Assembly: GCA_051362555.1 (NCBI GenBank)
Contig: CM120643.1
Location: forward strand, 20,960,848-21,024,847
Source of the DNA: Lingula anatina
Taxonomy: Eukaryota > Animalia > Brachiopoda
Direction: 5' to 3'
DNA length: 64,000 nucleotides
Below the pieces are notes generated by a model. That model ran no database searches. It saw only the letters and a list, made by a program, of their open reading frames with translations, and had not been told where the DNA came from. Each line of letters opens with the position of its first letter. Positions within the stretch are counted from its first letter, which is position 1. This document shows positions 8,885 through 20,943 of this stretch, in pieces. A program made the position numbers and the translations under genes.

Positions 8885-11800
8885 TCAGTCCATAAAAATC
8901 TTCCCAGGATTCATGATGCCCTTGGGATCAAGGGCTGCCTTCAATTCTTTCATCACTTGAACCCCAACCGCTCCGATCTCCTTCTCTAAAAAGTGGCGCT
9001 TGCCCAATCCAATCCCATGTTCACCTGTGCAGGTGCCATGCATTTCCAGCGCACGCCTGAAATGAACATGGAAACAAATAATCCAATAGAAATTCCATTA
9101 GCTGTTCTATGTACTTATTTGCTTGTCATATGTGAGACATTGATATACAGGAGTGTCAATAACTGAATTCAGCAGTTTGAAGAAACTATTATAATTATGA
9201 CTTTTGGAAGAAATAAATCATCAGGACAGGCTGATTTAAAGGAGGACTGGTATTTTTCGTGAGTAATTAGCCCTGACTGACTTTCAGGCAGGTTTTGAGT
9301 TTCCAATTCTGTGAAATGAAGCTTGGGAAATCTTCAGAAGTTCAGCAATGCCAGAGGCACATAAAACCCTATTTCAAACACAACTTTCAAGACCGAATTA
9401 CTTATGTCTTTTTCATTTACAACAAAACTGTTTTATTATATTCTAAAGAAACTGTGACTAACATGGCCATCCTAGAAGCTCAGTCTTGCACTGAACACAT
9501 AAATGACATTAAACCAGATTTTACAAAATCTGATACTTCTGCCTGTTTTTTGGTATCATACTTGTATGTAACAAAGTTGATGACGCCTGCCATGCTATGT
9601 TTTAGATGAACTGTGACTTACATAGCCATCCTGTCTGTGAGACCTTTGACCTCTTCCACCTCCTTGGGGTTATTTGGATCAAAAACCAGCACAGTGTGAA
9701 AGTTACCATCTCCAACATGGCCAACTATGGGGCCTAGAAAAGAATGTGTTAACAAAATGTAAAGATCTCCATCATGGCCAACTATAGGTTTTTAAATTAC
9801 GATATTTTGTCATGTTATCAGTCTTTGTTATCAATGTATACTTTGTCAGATAAGGTCAATTAAAGGATCTAAAAAAAGAAAATCTTACAATGCTACCATC
9901 GCCACCATAACATACTATTGCTTACAAAAATATAAAAAATGCTTGCTTTCTTTCACAACTAAAGATAATTGCGATTATTTCTTTTATTTATAACTTAAAG
10001 GGATAATAACTGTTCGTTATGGCCAAAAAATGAATTTTCCTGGAGTAAACAACAATTTTCCCATACTTAACAATGGTTAATGAATTCATTTCTACATTCA
10101 TTTGAATGTAGAAATGAATTCATTAACAATGGTTAATGAATTCATTTCTACATTCAAAGTTAGTCCCTGTTTTTTTTCTAAAAAGTTTTTTTTTTGTTAT
10201 AATCTCTTAAAAGATTATTACAGAGTATAGCCACCTATGGAGGTCACGTGGTCCAATGACAAGCTCAGATATCAGAATAATAGCTATAACTGCCGTTGTT
10301 GTGGTAAAACAGAGTATACTATATTTCTATGAGTTGTTTACAATGTTTTTATTGTGAAATATAGATCTCATACGAAGAGTTATTATCCCTTTAAATACAT
10401 TCAATGTAAATATTTCCTTTATAACCGGCTTGCTAACTTTAAAGCAAATTAAAAAGCATGTGAGTGGACAAAAGCTATACTTTTAAAAAACATTTAAGAC
10501 CTTTATGGTATAAATTCAGCAAAATAGAAATTTAACTGGCTATGATGCAAACTCAGCATTATGTAATTGTACACAGGTAAATAGTTTGAGAGCTTCAAAA
10601 GTCAAGCAAATGAAACAAAAATTAAAAACTGTCATATCTTTTGACACAACATCACAGAGCATGCAAAGCATTTTCTTCCTTTCTAATAGTATCTATTCAA
10701 GCAAGCATGCTGGTTTAGAGAGAAGGCCAAATACAGCTACATCACAAAATGCTAAAGTCAAAATGCTGTTTTAAAGAAAAAAAGCAGTGGCTGTTACCAA
10801 GAACCATAATCAAAACACAGCAAAATTTTGAATGCTAGAAAAAACAAACAATTTTGGCCTGTTCTCTTACCAACAACTGAGGAGCTTTGTATGTCTTCCT
10901 TGGTCATTGTAATTAATTCTGGTAACCTTGAGATTGGAACACAGACATCCGTGATGCTAGCCTTAAACAGAAGCACCAAGAAAACCACATAATCACATTT
11001 CCAATTACTGCAATCCAACCCTCAAGCATTAGGGGCAACAGAGGGAGAAAGCTGATTCATTTTTTTAGCTATTTAAGCATTTGCCATATTGTAAATAGCC
11101 TAGATTTATAGCACATCATCTTCCCCCTGGGTTTGTACAACTACTGGCATCATTACCAGGAATAAAGGACCTGTCCAAGTCCTCCTTGGTTTCCGTGAGG
11201 ACCTGCGGCAGCAGAGAGATGGGGACACAGACATCTGTCATTTTACCCTGGATACACAGGAAGCAAGAAGATTCAAATGGGGCTGGGGCCAATTTTACAA
11301 TAAAACTTCAGCCTGAAAAATTTTTGTCTGTCTCTGTTTAAGATAAATTTATAGTAGTCCTTTTAATAGTTGCAATGTTGTGTTAAAGTAAACTAAACTT
11401 TAAAACTGAAAGGTTTGACCAATTTTCAGGCTAAAATTTTTGTTTAACGGGCCCCTGCCTGAGTGACCGAAGTCGGACTGGCCAAAAGCAAAATGTCAGA
11501 AAAATGTTCTACAGTATACTTTGAAATGGGTTATCTCAACATAACACATAATGCATAATATATAAGAAAAAGACTTTCACTTTTTTCTTTATTTGTACTC
11601 TTGTTTGATGGTTTGTAAGATACATCTAGGTAATGATGAATTTCAATTGGTGAGGAAACCAACCTCAGCTCATTTTAAATAAAGAAGTTTATTTACTTTT
11701 CACAGAGATCTATATAATGGAACAGTACTCAAATATTTTACCTTACATCCTGGCCTTAGTGCAATGCAGGCATAGTAAGCATCATGTCTGGCCTTCCACA

Positions 11801-13777
11801 GTTTATTTCTCACCTCTGGCTCTTTGGCCCACTGAAACCCTGAACCTTCATTATACTCTGCTATCTCAGCTGAAATGAAAGTTCATTTTGTTTCAGATAT
11901 CAATGTCACATCATATATCATCACTGCCTCACATCTGCAATATAGTACCATCCCCTTTCACTCATCAACATATAGTCTACACATTTTTGAAAATGTTACT
12001 CATTTATCTACTTATTTTTTATTGACAACAAATTCTATTTGATTTCAGCTATTATTCTCTAGAGTTATAAATAGCCATCTCAGCTTCACTGGTATAATGG
12101 TTTAACCCTAACATAACCCTTCATACAGAACATCCATCTCACCATACGCCTTCCCCAATTTTATAAATAATGGATTTCCTATAATCCAGGTGTTATAAAC
12201 CAGCTCATTTTCATTGGTATACTAGTCTGCCACATCAAATCTAACCATACACCTAATGCCAGTAAAACTGAACCTGGGCCATTTAAATTTACTAAATTTG
12301 ATCAGTTACAAGCCACCATTTCTGCTTTGAACGGTAGATTACAAGTCCCTGATGTCTCATAGGGGCAGGAGGTTAAAACCCATTTTCAGCACAGGCTGGT
12401 GTAATATTTTCACCCAATATCTCACCCACAGCCTTGGCCTGTTCCTCCACCCCAGACTCTGAGCCATGGAACTCCAGGAATAGAGTGGGGGACTCCTGGT
12501 AGTCAAGATGACTGAACTTGTTACATGCCATCATCTGAACCTCGTCTAGAAACTCTGGAAGTTCAGGCACAAATGTTATTAAAATATAATGGTGATACCT
12601 TGGAAATGCTGTAAGTGTTTAATGGTCAAACTGGTTACATGTACCATTTAAGGTATGAGTGACAACAAATAACTGTTCAGAGATGGAAGGAATCTCTCCT
12701 GGACAAGTATGTATACCAATAGCTATGTTTATGCAGTTCACTGGGATTATGTTTGGAGCAAACAGGCGCATTTTCTAAACAATTTCAACAAATGAGGCCA
12801 AACAAAGGACAAAAATGGTCAACTTAGACCCTTCCCCCTTTTTTCAATAAGTTTCATCTTTAACTATTTAAATAAATATCACTCAATTTTAGCATACAAA
12901 TGTCACATGTATAATTCTTAACATTATTATTGTATACCGACAGCGAATACTAATAAATGTGTCTTTCATGACCTATATATTCTGCCAGCTTACCAATTCT
13001 AGCCATGGGTATTCCACACTGTAGTGTCTGAACTGTTGTATCAACTGCTGCCTTTACTGAGGGAAAGTGACAGACTGCTGATATAGTCTGGAAGGAGCAC
13101 ATATGATTCATATTATATTTCATGATCAGTATAAAATTATGACAGTAGATATTCGGATGTGTTCTAAAAGTGATTTAAGCTTAAATCTTGTTCCATTTGT
13201 AAAAAAAGTTACTACAATATATGTTTCGTTTGGATCTATTCTTTTTCGCTCTTATTACAACTTGTGCAACTGAAATCTTGCAAACATGCCATATTCAGGT
13301 TATTTAATGAAAGTTAATCACTAAACTTGCTCTATCTAGATATAAAAAAACATCCCTTTTGGCTTTCAATGTACAATCCAGTCCAACTTTTTAAACAATA
13401 TTAAAACATTTTCTCAAGATCTGCTGGCATACAAGTACTCACACTCTCTGGTTGTCCATAAAGTTTTATTGTGGCCTTGGTGATGATGCCAAGAGTTCCC
13501 TCAGAGCCAACAAATAGGTTGGTCATATTGTATCCAGCTGCAGTTTTTCTAAATATAAAAAATAATTAGAAAAAAAATAAATTGTTTGAATATATAATTA
13601 ATAACTATAATAAACAAATAAATAAAAATCATAGAAAATTCTGAACTACACTTTACCAGTTAGTAAAATGTTAAAAGCATTTAAGTGCTATCTCCAAACA
13701 TGAAAATGTTCCACTAAAGTTACAGGTTTACATAACTTTGATATACATTTTAAGACAGCAAAAGAATGTCTCACAGT

Positions 13778-16655: not shown

Positions 16656-19385
16656 ATGGTGGGTTGTGAGAGAAAATGTGCCCCCGAAATTAGCAAAATA
16701 TCTCTGTATAATAAGTTAATTCCTTATCAATAAATGTGTTTTCTTGTAAACAATATGCTATAGATAACAAATGGCTCAACATAACCCCTAAGTATTTCTT
16801 ATTATTTAAACAAAAACGGTATTTCATGGCCCTAAATCGCTGTGTGAAAATTGGATGCAAAGGTAAAACGAAGACGGACATTCGTGGCACAGTTAGCTTC
16901 AGTTTTTTGGTAAAGCGGTGACAGTAATAAAATATGCAGTGACTCACTTTGTGAAATATGCCTCCGATAATGTGGTCAAATATTATGCTGTAAATCCATG
17001 CGCTTTGCAAGTTCCATAATTACTGTTCATAATTAGAATTTCTGCAGTATGCCTCCAAACTTGAGCATGCTTGTCTTTGATTTTTTTTATGAAATTCGTA
17101 TAGGTGGTGACTTTGGTCAATGTCTCTTCCATTTATTCACTGAATTTTTGGTGTTCACGCCTGGAATGACATCGGGTTTCAATGTATTTGAATTCCTTTC
17201 AGTTTTCTTGATATGATATTGAATCATATTTACATCATTGCTGCCAGACTAATTGATTTTAGTTAGCGAGTCCGTAATCAACTTCACCACATCACTAGGT
17301 TTAAATAAATATTGACAATCCACAACTTGTCATTTTTAAAAAAATATTTATTTATTTATTGAGTATTTATTTATTTGTTGTTGTTGATGGGTGGGGGTTC
17401 TCCATGCTTAAGAGCCTTTGACACAAGCACTCATATCTGGATAAGTAATCCCTCATTAGCAACTATTAAGGTAACAAGAAAATTGATTTTCAAATAATAA
17501 ATGTAACAACCAATTGCAATTTTTGTCAAAGAAAATGTATGTGTACAAAAGTGATTATCTAGCCATATTTATTCATTGCAGGGTTTTTCCCGATATGTTG
17601 AGATAGGCCGTGTGGCCTTTGTTGCCTTTGGTCCAGACCAGGGAAAACTGGTCGCCATTTCAGATGTTATAGATCAGAATAGGGTAAGTGTGGTCAATGT
17701 GGCCCATAATGTTACTAAGTGTACCACATATTCTGATCTCTTGAATGGAGCACTGGTATCAAGGTTTGATGCTGTATTGATAAGCGTTGTTGAAAGGATT
17801 TGGTGTCAGAATAAATCTCGAGATAATCTTAGACTCTTTAATTGTTCTTTCGGCTATGCATTCCAACCTCCATGGTATAAGTTCACACTGATGATGAGCC
17901 TTAGGTTGATAGGAATTGCCGTCAGATACGAAGCTGACGATAACCTCCTAACCTGAAAGTGTGTTTACTAGTTTATCTTAATTTCATTGTGGGCTTACAG
18001 TAGAAGTAACTTCAGTTAAGTTTCTTTTTCTTTTAAGTTCATCTTGTTCATAATGGGACTTGAAGGAAATTTTTATATTGGAAGACCAATGGCCTTATGT
18101 TACAGTTTATGAAATTGTTTATTTAGTGACACTTGGTTTTAATTCCAGGCTCTAGTTGACGGCCCATGCACTGGTGTAGCCAGAAAATGTATGAACCTGA
18201 AACAGCTCCACCTCACCAAGTACGTGCTCAAGTACGGCCACGGAGCCAGGACAGGCACTATCCGCAAGGCCTGGGAGAAGGCGAAGATCAGTGAACAGTG
18301 GGCCGAGTCCACCTGGGCCAAGAAACTGGCCCGCAGGGAACAGGTGGGTACTCAGTTCAGTAGTGATAGATTGCTATTTGTACATGAGATTCGACTGCCA
18401 AACCTAAAGTGTGCTGAGTAAATAGGTCAGTTTTCAGTTTTTTTCCTGTGTTAAGAAGTACACCTGAAATAAACTGCAGGATGACAAAGCCATATAAGTT
18501 ATTACCTACTTCCGTGTGCTTTTGTTGTGAGTTTGCTGTGTGTAAAAGAAATAGAAGGCCAGGATTTCCTACCTACCCCATTGTACTTTTGGCCTGGTAG
18601 TCGAACCTCTTCGATGTACGTTCACACTGATGATGAGCCTTAGGTTGATAGGAATTGCCGTCAGATACGAAGCTGACGATAACCCCCTAAGCTGAAAGTG
18701 TTTTGAACAGTTTAATTTTCTTTAATTTTCGTTTGGAACCTGTCTAGAATGAACTTTAAGCCAAGTCTGAAATATGAAATGAATTAACGAGGAGTTGGAA
18801 ATAAAGCAATAGAATACTTTGAATTTGAGTCCAGACTTAATGCCACATTTGAAACAAACATTTTTTAAATTTAATTATTCAGCTCTTTTTTGCATTTTTA
18901 CAGAGGGCTCAGCTGACCGACTTTGACAGGTTTAAGCTTATGAAGGCAAAGCAAGCGGTGAGTAATAAGAATGATCAACCTCAAGAAAAAACATTTAGCA
19001 CATAATTGCGTTAAATCAACAAAATGCACTTTGCGAAGCCATTAGAATGTAGGTTTGACTACCAGACAGACGAGTGAACTTGAGTAAAGGTCTTGTAGAT
19101 GATGAACCTTGTTGATAGGAATTGCCGTCAGATACGAAGCTGAAGATGACTTAAAAATCTGAACAGACCTTCATAGAGTGTGCAAGTACATATCTTTAGG
19201 CGCTTCTCGGATTAGTGTAAAAATGAATCTTTTTTTGCATCGTTTGCTAACCTGGAATCGCTTTCCCTTTGCAGAGAAACCGCCTCATCGCCATTGAGTA
19301 CGGAAAACTGAAGAAGGCTGCCAAGGGAACGAAACCCAAACCAAAGCGCGCCAAGCCCAACAAAAAAGTACACAAGAAGCAGTAG
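16656..19385 (+). CDS. RPL14: 60S ribosomal protein L14 (eL14)
   Basis: Exons 16656-16658 (ATG only), 17582-17683, 18149-18343, 18904-18957, 19275-19385. Protein [41 protein letters not shown]...[20 protein letters not shown]...; AATAAA at about 19440. Confidence 0.98.
17884..17963 (+). ncRNA. Intronic C/D-box snoRNA copy 1 (SNORD65/snR77-like), RPL14 intron 2
   Basis: Terminal stem cacact/agtgtg, C box atgatga, guide ggaattgccgt followed by D' caga, C'-like tgacga, D box ctga at 17953-17956. The guide pairs with the conserved 18S segment GCGGUAAUUCC. Confidence 0.88.
18620..18708 (+). ncRNA. Intronic C/D-box snoRNA copy 2 (SNORD65/snR77-like), RPL14 intron 3
   Basis: Near-identical to copy 1; C box at about 18630-18636, D box at 18692-18695, terminal stem gttca/tgaac. 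Confidence 0.88.
19087..19171 (+). ncRNA. Intronic C/D-box snoRNA copy 3 (SNORD65/snR77-like), RPL14 intron 4
   Basis: Different terminal stem aaggtct/agacctt; C box 19099-19105; the same core gttgataggaattgccgtcagatacgaagctga; D box 19159-19162. Confidence 0.88.
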
Positions 19386-20943
19386 AGACTTGATGGAATG
19401 AATATTTTTTAATGAACAGAACATTTCGGGGAACATGTCAATAAATAAAGAAATATTGACTTCAAAGAACTACCATCTCCTTGTTGATTCTTTATGATGG
19501 TGCAATTGCTTATCATTTGTACTTACCCCCGGATTTAATTGAAGTCGTTGTCCGTTAGGCCCTGTTCAGGTATATGCAACTCGGCCGCCAGTTGTGCATA
19601 ACAGACATTTTGTTATGGCAGCTCACTTAATTCGGTCAAATTTCTTGCATGCTTCACTCACTGCGATGTTTTTTGCCTAAAGTTGTGAAGGATACCGAAA
19701 GAAATATTTACTTTAGATATTTTAACTTCGTATTTGAACCATAATCTGAGATATTCGAAATTTCTTTATTATAGTTCATATAGTCGAGCGCAGATTCTCT
19801 ATAATGCATATTAACCACTGAAACTAGTTTCTTACACGACTCGAATAAAGTCGATGTGCCCAGAGATAAACCGAATTAATCACTCGTCCAGCCGTAAAGA
19901 GCTTTAAAGTTGCAACTTTAAATACCTGGGCGTAGTATTGGACTTCATTATCCATTCCTACAGTCCACCAAACTGACGTAGCAATGTATGTCGCATTACT
20001 GCTGCGCCCGCTAAATTTATAATACATATTATAATAAATGTAACACATATTTACTAAAAAGCCAATCATTTTCTGTCAAAGTCGGGATATATAAGGTAAA
20101 TTATAAGCATGGACGTCCGCAGAAAATTTTCCAGGGGGTGGGGGTGGGGATCAAAGTCATTGAAGGGGGAAATAATAATTGGCTGGGTACCCGCAATAAA
20201 AATGCAGTTCCAAAATTCCGGGGGGGGGGGGGGATTATAAGTACTGGTCAGGTAATGGCTATCCGTGTTCCCAGAAGATGACTTGATAGACACTGACAGC
20301 TGCATGCGTTGGGTAGTGCTGTTGGAAGGATTTTTTGCATTATTTTAAGAAGGAAATAGGTGATTTTTGGTTCCTGATTTAATTTTTTTTTGACTAGTTA
20401 TTGCATTATAACTGAAATACTTTATTAAAAACATTCAAACGTTTGGAACACGGCCTGCTCAAGGGTAAATTCTCTGTTCATTTTACTGTACATTACTAAT
20501 TTGTTTTGATTTTTCTTTTTTTGGGGGGAATAATTCTGGCTTTTTCGATATTTTATTCATTATTGGGCATGGGAAGCATGGCATAAGAGTCAAAAACAAA
20601 TATTATGTTCTATGTTCTTTTAGATCTACTAGAGGTACCACAGACACTTTCTATAATGAAAACTTGCACACATTCGATACTGGTATCTCGTCAATCAAAT
20701 ATTTGGTACTTGATATCAATCCCTATATCATACTAAGTAATTCGTACACCTTATGGGGTTCATCACGACACACAAACCACCCGATGAAATAACTGCCCTC
20801 GACGCGCCTGCGCGGTAATCCTCTACTACACGACGAGATTCCAACACATACATGTACATGTACAAGGGTCTCCTAGAGGCCTAAAGTACACGTCAGATAC
20901 GATACGTACAAATTGATTTAGATTAACGGTAAAGAAGCCCAAG

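Follow-up and report, generated by a model that had tools for sequence, protein, structure and literature searches.

Either-or splicing of a duplicated exon at the substrate pocket of LDHD in the brachiopod Lingula anatina

Introduction

Two versions of the tenth coding exon stand side by side in the LDHD gene of the brachiopod Lingula anatina, which raises the question of whether they are used as alternatives and what the choice would change in the enzyme. The gene lies on the minus strand of a 64,000-nucleotide (nt) stretch, referred to here as the window (GenBank assembly GCA_051362555.1, contig CM120643.1, positions 20,960,848 to 21,024,847 of the forward strand). A first-pass annotation made from these letters alone had proposed that one gene makes two D-2-hydroxy-acid dehydrogenases of different specificity through a splicing switch. 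The physiological substrates of LDHD are described in the main text of the study of the mouse enzyme (PMC10589216) as still under investigation. The analysis presented here indicates that the two exons, A and B, are almost certainly real and expressed tandem duplicates, that transcripts carry one or the other, and that the exchanged segment begins in the substrate pocket.

Two exons of equal length and phase

The part of the gene concerned is as follows (coordinates are those of the window, residue numbers those of mouse LDHD).

Exon 9, constitutive: 11742..11869, minus strand; holds Arg347 and a Tyr at the position of mouse Trp351 (joints in reads and alignment)
Exon 10A, alternative, 91 nt: 11157..11247, minus strand; GKM at positions 363-365, spliced to exons 9 and 11; RefSeq XP_023931491
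Intron between A and B, 195 nt: 10962..11156, minus strand; contains a branch-point-like CTAAT and is partly retained in some runs
Exon 10B, alternative, 91 nt: 10871..10961, minus strand; ASI at positions 363-365, spliced to exons 9 and 11; RefSeq XP_013391040
Exon 11, constitutive, single copy: 9622..9733, minus strand; His398, His405 and a Val at mouse Ile407 (reads and alignment)

The coordinates and translations given in the first pass for two homologous 91-nt exons proved exact. Both have intact AG/GT borders (ccag/GGTAAA and CCTG/gtaatg for A, taag/GCTAGC and GTTG/gtaaga for B) and run from phase 0 to phase 1. The copies are identical at 57 of 91 nt (63%) and 16 of 30 amino acids, with 14 of the 30 residues differing. 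Codon positions one, two and three match in 20, 24 and 12 of 30 cases, respectively, such that third positions are near saturation, and eight of the 16 shared residues are encoded by different codons; strong nucleotide divergence around a preserved protein core, as previously claimed, is therefore upheld. Across the 64 kb, a motif search in all six frames returned the A and B copies and one unrelated plus-strand match, and nothing more.

Translation also bears out the claim that including both exons, or neither, breaks the frame. With A alone or B alone the product runs for 377 amino acids from exon 4 to the normal stop, whereas translation ends at the initial codon of B when both are included and at nt 7 within exon 11 when both are skipped. 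Each of these early stops falls well upstream of a later junction, a position that by the usual rule marks a transcript for decay. The start of exon A (11247-11239), GGTAAAATG, holds the seven letters of the intron 9 donor, GTAAAAT (11741-11735), one base out of register, and is possibly a cryptic donor or a chance likeness.

Transcripts join each exon to the same neighbours

Raw RNA reads were taken from eight of the nine listed L. anatina runs. Junctions in X3, X5, X6 and X8 were counted from a read placement that excluded a repeat at about 9950-10440, with a listing threshold of three reads; the share of exon A in X1, X2, X4 and X7 was estimated from binned depth and is approximate, as the bins include intron.

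Exon 9 was joined to B in one read of X3, four of X5, none of X6 and six of X8, and to A in 11 reads of X8 and none of X3, X5 or X6; the exon 9/A junction was also present in short loose ends (seven in X6, five in X8). Downstream, loose ends joined B to exon 11 in X5 (7), X6 (6) and X8 (5), and A to exon 11 in the same runs (5, 7 and 18, respectively). No A-to-B joint was listed at three or more reads in the four runs, and the rows listed at that threshold contained no loose end joining exon 9 to exon 11. All four joins expected of either-or splicing were thus found, each exon being connected to exons 9 and 11, and the mutual exclusivity predicted from the sequence is supported by the transcripts.

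Usage differs between samples, as had been anticipated. The A share was about 0.0 in X1, 0.19 in X2, 0.23 in X4 and 0.83 in X7, and the ratio of A to B at downstream junctions was 18:5 in X8 versus 12:13 in X5 and X6 together (Fisher p 0.04). The further suggestion that the switch is tied to tissue or anaerobic metabolism found no support in the run data, whose metadata are coded, or in the literature, and no paper was found on Lingula with regard to D-lactate and anaerobic life.

Reads within the A-B intron occur in X5 and X6, and in X6 the depth is unbroken from B through the intron to A. Intronic reads lack 6 nt of the pyrimidine tract ahead of B (10968-10973) in two of two cases in X5 and six of six in X6. 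X6, with this loss, is the run that combines zero exon 9-to-B joints with reads in the A-B intron.

The variants seen in reads point to selection on both exons, in agreement with the first-pass annotation: nine of 11 in A and B are synonymous, against an expected fraction of about 0.29 (p 4e-4), and four of five in exon A alone (p 0.03). The nonsynonymous pair consists of a Met-to-Ile change in B, which RefSeq shares, and Thr366Ile in A.

The swapped segment begins in the side-chain pocket

The identification of the gene as LDHD holds. LDHD is a mitochondrial, FAD-linked member of the VAO/PCMH family, whose activity is the oxidation, dependent on Mn2+, of D-lactate and other hydrophobic D-2-hydroxy acids. 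Mouse LDHD is the best match of the Lingula protein in PDB (E 3e-194), and Foldseek against this structure gave template-modelling scores (TM-scores) of 0.83-0.90. PF02913 (FAD-oxidase C-terminal) is found on P0006, and both PF01565 (FAD-binding) and PF02913 on full-length homologues. The alignment to mouse LDHD is ungapped at about 60% identity, and the subsite A residues Arg347, His398, His405, Glu442 and His443, as described in the main text for the mouse enzyme (PDB 8JDx series; PMC10589216), are kept in both Lingula isoforms. An AlphaFold model of the B form, with a predicted local distance difference test score of 74 from 16 sequences, supports the fold only.

The side-chain pocket of mouse LDHD (subsite B) is formed by Val101, Trp351, Ser365 and Ile407, and Ala363 contacts Trp351, according to the same text (PMC10589216). 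The aligned Lingula residues are Leu101, Tyr351, Met (A) or Ile (B) at 365 and Val407, which are hydrophobic but not identical to those of the mouse. The swap changes positions 363-365 from Gly, Lys and Met in A to Ala, Ser and Ile in B. The beginning of the exon thus covers two positions that form or shape the side-chain pocket, which sustains the claim that the exons exchange part of the substrate-binding region.

Position 365 was surveyed in 234 distinct exon 10-11 stretches from animal and bacterial proteins of at least 400 amino acids, the partial A-form protein being excluded. The residue is Ser or Ala in 217 of the 234, which makes both Lingula residues unusual. The sole Met365, an A-like pocket residue, belongs to P0011, which is the closest relative of Lingula (support 99/88) in a tree built without these exons. 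Judged from the residues, both Lingula forms would have an unusually filled pocket, differing more in shape than in size.

The first-pass annotation had also aligned the strand before the conserved Asp with that of D2HGDH, whose Lys binds the distal carboxylate of the substrate, and placed the difference between the exons there. The location at the pocket stands, but it holds no basic residue in either isoform: in a register counted ungapped from the conserved Asp, and not from superposition, Lys401 of D2HGDH aligns with position 365, which is Met or Ile, and the Lys of exon A is at 364. A D2HGDH-like specificity was rejected on the same grounds, as Thr390, Lys401 and Asn443 of D2HGDH are matched by Tyr, Met or Ile, and Val in both isoforms.

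Met versus Ile at 365 and Gly versus Ala at 363, facing Tyr351, Leu101 and Val407, would reshape subsite B, and a reshaped subsite B would be expected to alter kcat/KM for D-lactate relative to that for longer or branched hydroxy acids. We put at about even the chance that either-or use of exon 10 yields two full-length enzymes with a tuned preference among hydrophobic D-2-hydroxy acids. Modest tuning appears likelier than a new substrate class.

How the choice may be enforced

Steric exclusion of neighbouring exons applies when the branch point lies within about 50 nt of the upstream donor. The sole branch-point-like match in the A-B intron is a CTAAT whose A is 128 nt from the A donor, and a steric block between A and B was rejected because the 195-nt intron is too long and the site too distant. 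The choice is accordingly probably governed by a candidate docking element in intron 9, for which pairing was predicted with two sites.

Candidate docking element in intron 9: 11448..11482, minus strand; guanine-cytosine (GC) fraction 0.71 versus 0.32 for the intron; predicted pairing
Candidate selector ahead of A: 11278..11322, minus strand; predicted hairpin with 11459-11423, 34 pairs, mean probability 0.92
Candidate selector ahead of B: 11012..11036, minus strand; spans the branch-point-like CTAAT; duplex with the docking element predicted at -34 kcal/mol

The best 30-nt duplex between the docking element and the selector ahead of B has a predicted energy of -33.1 kcal/mol, compared with -23.0 +/- 2.0 for shuffled sequences (none of 60 as strong) and -24.3 +/- 2.7 for real sequence from the window (none of 130, the nearest at -31.8). 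The 3' end of the docking element opens the hairpin with 11319-11281 ahead of A, at -44.4 kcal/mol (z -4.4, none of 200 shuffles). The two pairings (-44.4 and -34.1 kcal/mol) overlap at about 11459-11450, a predicted layout of one docking site with two selectors. No reads were placed on the docking element in X3, X5, X6 or X8, which argues that it is not a common transcribed repeat.

In the proposed mechanism the GC-rich element would pair ahead of A or ahead of B, never both, and decay of the double-inclusion and double-skip products with their early stops would back this up. This layout is tempered by three findings: three variants of the B selector in X6 reads would weaken the duplex, predicted at -34.1 kcal/mol, to -19.4 unless the docking element carries compensating changes, a pairing that would loop out exon B was at chance level (13 of 60 shuffles), and two pairing directions were tried in a prediction from one haplotype.

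The layout resembles Dscam-type docking sites and selectors in that one upstream intronic element is predicted to pair ahead of either exon, and the available text of PMC6071210 proposes that such arrangements arise when a hairpin arm duplicates along with the exon. It differs in that the Lingula pairing is predicted from a single haplotype and one arm is weakened by variants in one run.

LDHD isoform pairs in other animals

Isoforms of LDHD were compared in 33 species or locus sets, gathered by cluster look-ups, chosen for having several members and consisting of database gene models. A swap of exon 11 was found in 19 of them, comprising four cnidarians, 13 molluscs (Octopus, four Mytilus, Saccostrea, Pecten, Dreissena, three Haliotis, Pomacea and Littorina) and two crinoids. 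All 19 pair a form that carries Phe407 with one that carries Val, Leu or Ala there. The pairs beyond the molluscs, from sea anemones, corals and crinoids, are the database proteins P0008/P0054, P0132/P0224, P0244/P0245, P0195/P0257, P0113/P0261 and P0143/P0316. The exon-11 pair may predate the split of cnidarians and bilaterians or may have arisen repeatedly.

A swap of exon 10 was found in two of the 33 sets, Lingula and one locus of Owenia fusiformis, each with one known exon 11 of the non-Phe type. The Owenia models P0197 and P0259 are of equal length and differ in exon 10 alone, with 20 differences and SIT versus GFA at 363-365; Owenia also has a second LDHD gene, P0096. In a tree of the 30 exon columns, approximately unbiased p values (p-AU) of 0.29-0.66 for five groupings fit both a shared and a separate origin of the two exon-10 pairs. 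Neither swap was seen in the remaining 12 sets (Amphiura, two Ptychodera loci, two Branchiostoma sets, five fish and shark sets and two further clusters), and none of the 33 has both. Hemichordates have separate LDHD gene copies with an exon 11 of the Phe or the Val/Ile type.

The exon-11 pairs affect the same gene and the same pocket as the Lingula pair, again by an equal-length swap of homologous exons. By contrast, they vary residue 407 and keep Ser or Ala at 365, whereas Lingula has a single exon 11 with Val407 and varies 363-365. The exon-10 pair would thus parallel the Phe/non-Phe pair in the adjoining exon of the same pocket, and a splice-tuned LDHD pocket has likely evolved more than once in animals.

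In three Rotaria proteins (P0093, P0207 and P0262) two exon-11-type segments, one with Phe and one with Ile or Val, occur in one predicted protein; these models are either tandem genes fused by annotation or alternative exons left unseparated.

Gene model and neighbouring features

The LDHD gene comprises 12 coding exons on the minus strand, from 16335 to 8885. Those not given above are as follows.

Exon 1: 16335-16249, minus strand; read by eye against protein P0053
Exon 2: 15523-15402, minus strand; read by eye against protein P0053
Exon 3: 15139-14998, minus strand; read by eye against protein P0053
Exon 4: 14480-14339, minus strand; script-based
Exon 5: 14036-13877, minus strand; script-based
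Exon 6: 13548-13443, minus strand; script-based, with joints in reads across exons 6-9
Exon 7: 13087-12994, minus strand; script-based, with joints in reads across exons 6-9
Exon 8: 12554-12426, minus strand; script-based, with joints in reads across exons 6-9
Exon 12, last coding: 8885..9056, minus strand; Glu442-His443 motif and stop codon

In a database search the translation of exon 9 was 100% identical to a L. anatina protein. The same cluster holds both RefSeq entries: the exon B form, XP_013391040 (494 amino acids), and the exon A form, XP_023931491, a partial protein of 280 amino acids on a 4.9-kb scaffold. RefSeq enters the two as separate genes, on scaffolds of 534 kb and 4.9 kb, and outside the swapped exon they differ by one residue. 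The window differs from both at single residues, which identifies it as another haplotype.

The tblastn matches listed include no second exon 11 in Lingula, 9622-9733 being the only strong match to this exon among them. Two short look-alikes flank it, one of its start at 9756-9788 in the flanking intron (82% over 33 nt, 57 nt upstream) and one of its end with the donor at 9437-9473 (81% over 37 nt, 159 nt downstream). They are too short and too similar to be an old decayed exon, and this explanation was rejected.

The repeat at 9950-10440 has 23-nt inverted ends (9995-10017 and 10372-10394) and, internally, a 34-nt sequence repeated in direct and inverted orientation. Reads cover it at hundreds-fold depth on both strands, and it looks like a high-copy miniature transposon. 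Upstream of LDHD, at about 17900-19400 on the minus strand, apparent exons of a ribosomal protein gene were read by eye, with three copies of an intronic sequence of about 45 nt near 17940, 18680 and 19140; these copies are possibly small RNAs encoded in introns.

Discussion

Tuning of the pocket by exon 10 has to be weighed against several findings that speak the other way. Eleven of the 14 differences between A and B fall beyond the pocket strand, within the helix and loop that come next, where they could have effects other than pocket tuning. Since Met, like Ile, is a large hydrophobic residue, the difference within the pocket may be small, and mutagenesis of Ser365 or Ile407 was not found in the main text of PMC10589216. 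Read numbers were small, at 16-80 per run in the junction analysis, and because individual, library and study vary from run to run, genotype or library, and not tissue, may lie behind the A/B ratios. Thr366Ile, present in six of seven exon A reads of X6 from two start places, alters the near-invariant TD motif and is evidence against strict constraint on A. Outside Lingula the isoform pairs are known as gene models alone, and absence of a pair from a database carries little weight.

The main rival to pocket tuning is that the isoforms are near-equivalent, with essentially the same substrate range, and are kept by redundancy, or that the swapped helix alters stability, loading of metal or flavin adenine dinucleotide (FAD), or docking to the electron acceptor. 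The conservative exchanges (Met/Ile and Gly/Ala) fit this explanation, as do the concentration of differences in helix H380-395 and the loop after it and the purifying selection that would be expected on both exons whenever both are translated. We regard it as a serious possibility that falls short of an even chance: neither exon has the Ser or Ala that occupies 365 in 217 of 234 stretches, the Owenia pair, which looks independent, varies at 363-365 as well, all 19 exon-11 pairs differ at the pocket residue 407, and usage differs strongly between runs.

A switch of substrate class, with one isoform acting on D-2-hydroxyglutarate, D-malate or glycolate or serving anaerobic D-lactate turnover, is unlikely. 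Its precedent is coq-2, in which two residues in a mutually exclusive exon switch the substrate in facultative anaerobes, as described in the available text of PMC7434440. Exons 6a and 6e of that gene resemble the Lingula pair as homologous either-or exons of an invertebrate mitochondrial enzyme that change a few residues beside the substrate; there, however, the switch and its anaerobic link are established by experiment, and the residue change in Lingula is more conservative (PMC7434440). With a bulky residue at 365 the pocket could become narrower and favour small substrates, as with the Tyr of GlcD at the position of Ala363 mentioned in the main text of PMC10589216, and exon A has a rare Lys at 364. 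This Lys is, however, one place off the pocket register, and the D2HGDH pocket residues Thr390, Lys401 and Asn443 are replaced in Lingula by Tyr, Met or Ile, and Val.

It is very improbable that leaky splicing includes one of the exons as a spare copy, either decaying or restricted to the lineage. Thr366Ile in X6, the loss of 6 nt from the pyrimidine tract at B together with intron-retaining reads in X5 and X6, and the long branch of exon A in the exon tree would agree with decay; against it, each exon predominates in at least one run, frame, length and splice sites are intact even with third positions near saturation, and the variants are mostly synonymous. An assembly artefact merging two alleles or paralogues, to which the separate RefSeq scaffolds of 534 kb and 4.9 kb and the high polymorphism of the species might point, is largely refuted and retains next to no probability, given that alleles would be far more alike than 63% at the nucleotide level, that both exons are connected to the same flanks by reads within single runs, that depth in X6 is continuous across B, intron and A, and that the RefSeq proteins differ by one residue outside the exon.

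The first-pass annotation knew of no description of alternative LDHD exons, and our literature search, made through listings and with thin coverage of subscription papers, likewise found none. In the main text of the mouse LDHD paper (PMC10589216) the word isoform is absent. Several molluscs and a polychaete have D-lactate dehydrogenase activity only, according to the accessible text of PMC2570690, which does not cover brachiopods or splicing. The A/B pair shares equal length, a conserved core, conservative changes and convergent appearance in orthologues with the tandem duplicated exon substitutions of PMC9741552, as set out in its main text; that human catalogue is enriched in ion channels and its main text lacks LDHD, whereas the Lingula case concerns a metabolic flavoenzyme. 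MetazExp includes Lingula and calls splice events automatically, and the A/B event may sit there unremarked. By these comparisons the mechanism belongs to a known type, with tandem duplicated exons as its class and coq-2 as the closest functional model, and the LDHD case appears undescribed.

A wider reading, which we advance tentatively and consider rather doubtful, is that most sampled invertebrate lineages splice LDHD between two pockets, built at least twice (in exon 11 and in exon 10), the hemichordate gene duplicates (Phe versus Val at 407) offering a third route. In that case two distinct mitochondrial D-2-hydroxy-acid dehydrogenase activities would be required in animals, one of them for a physiological substrate still unnamed, and vertebrates would have retained a single broad-pocket form.

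Should the isoforms prove kinetically alike, the Lingula case would be an ordinary duplicated exon. At the level of annotation, the two Lingula genes of RefSeq are to be corrected to two forms of one gene. There are few clear cases in which the choice of an exon remodels the active site of an enzyme, and a splice toggle that recurs on two exons of one pocket, across phyla, would provide natural matched enzyme pairs. Such pairs bear on how residues 363, 365 and 407 set the substrate range of LDHD, and on a second D-hydroxy-acid substrate.

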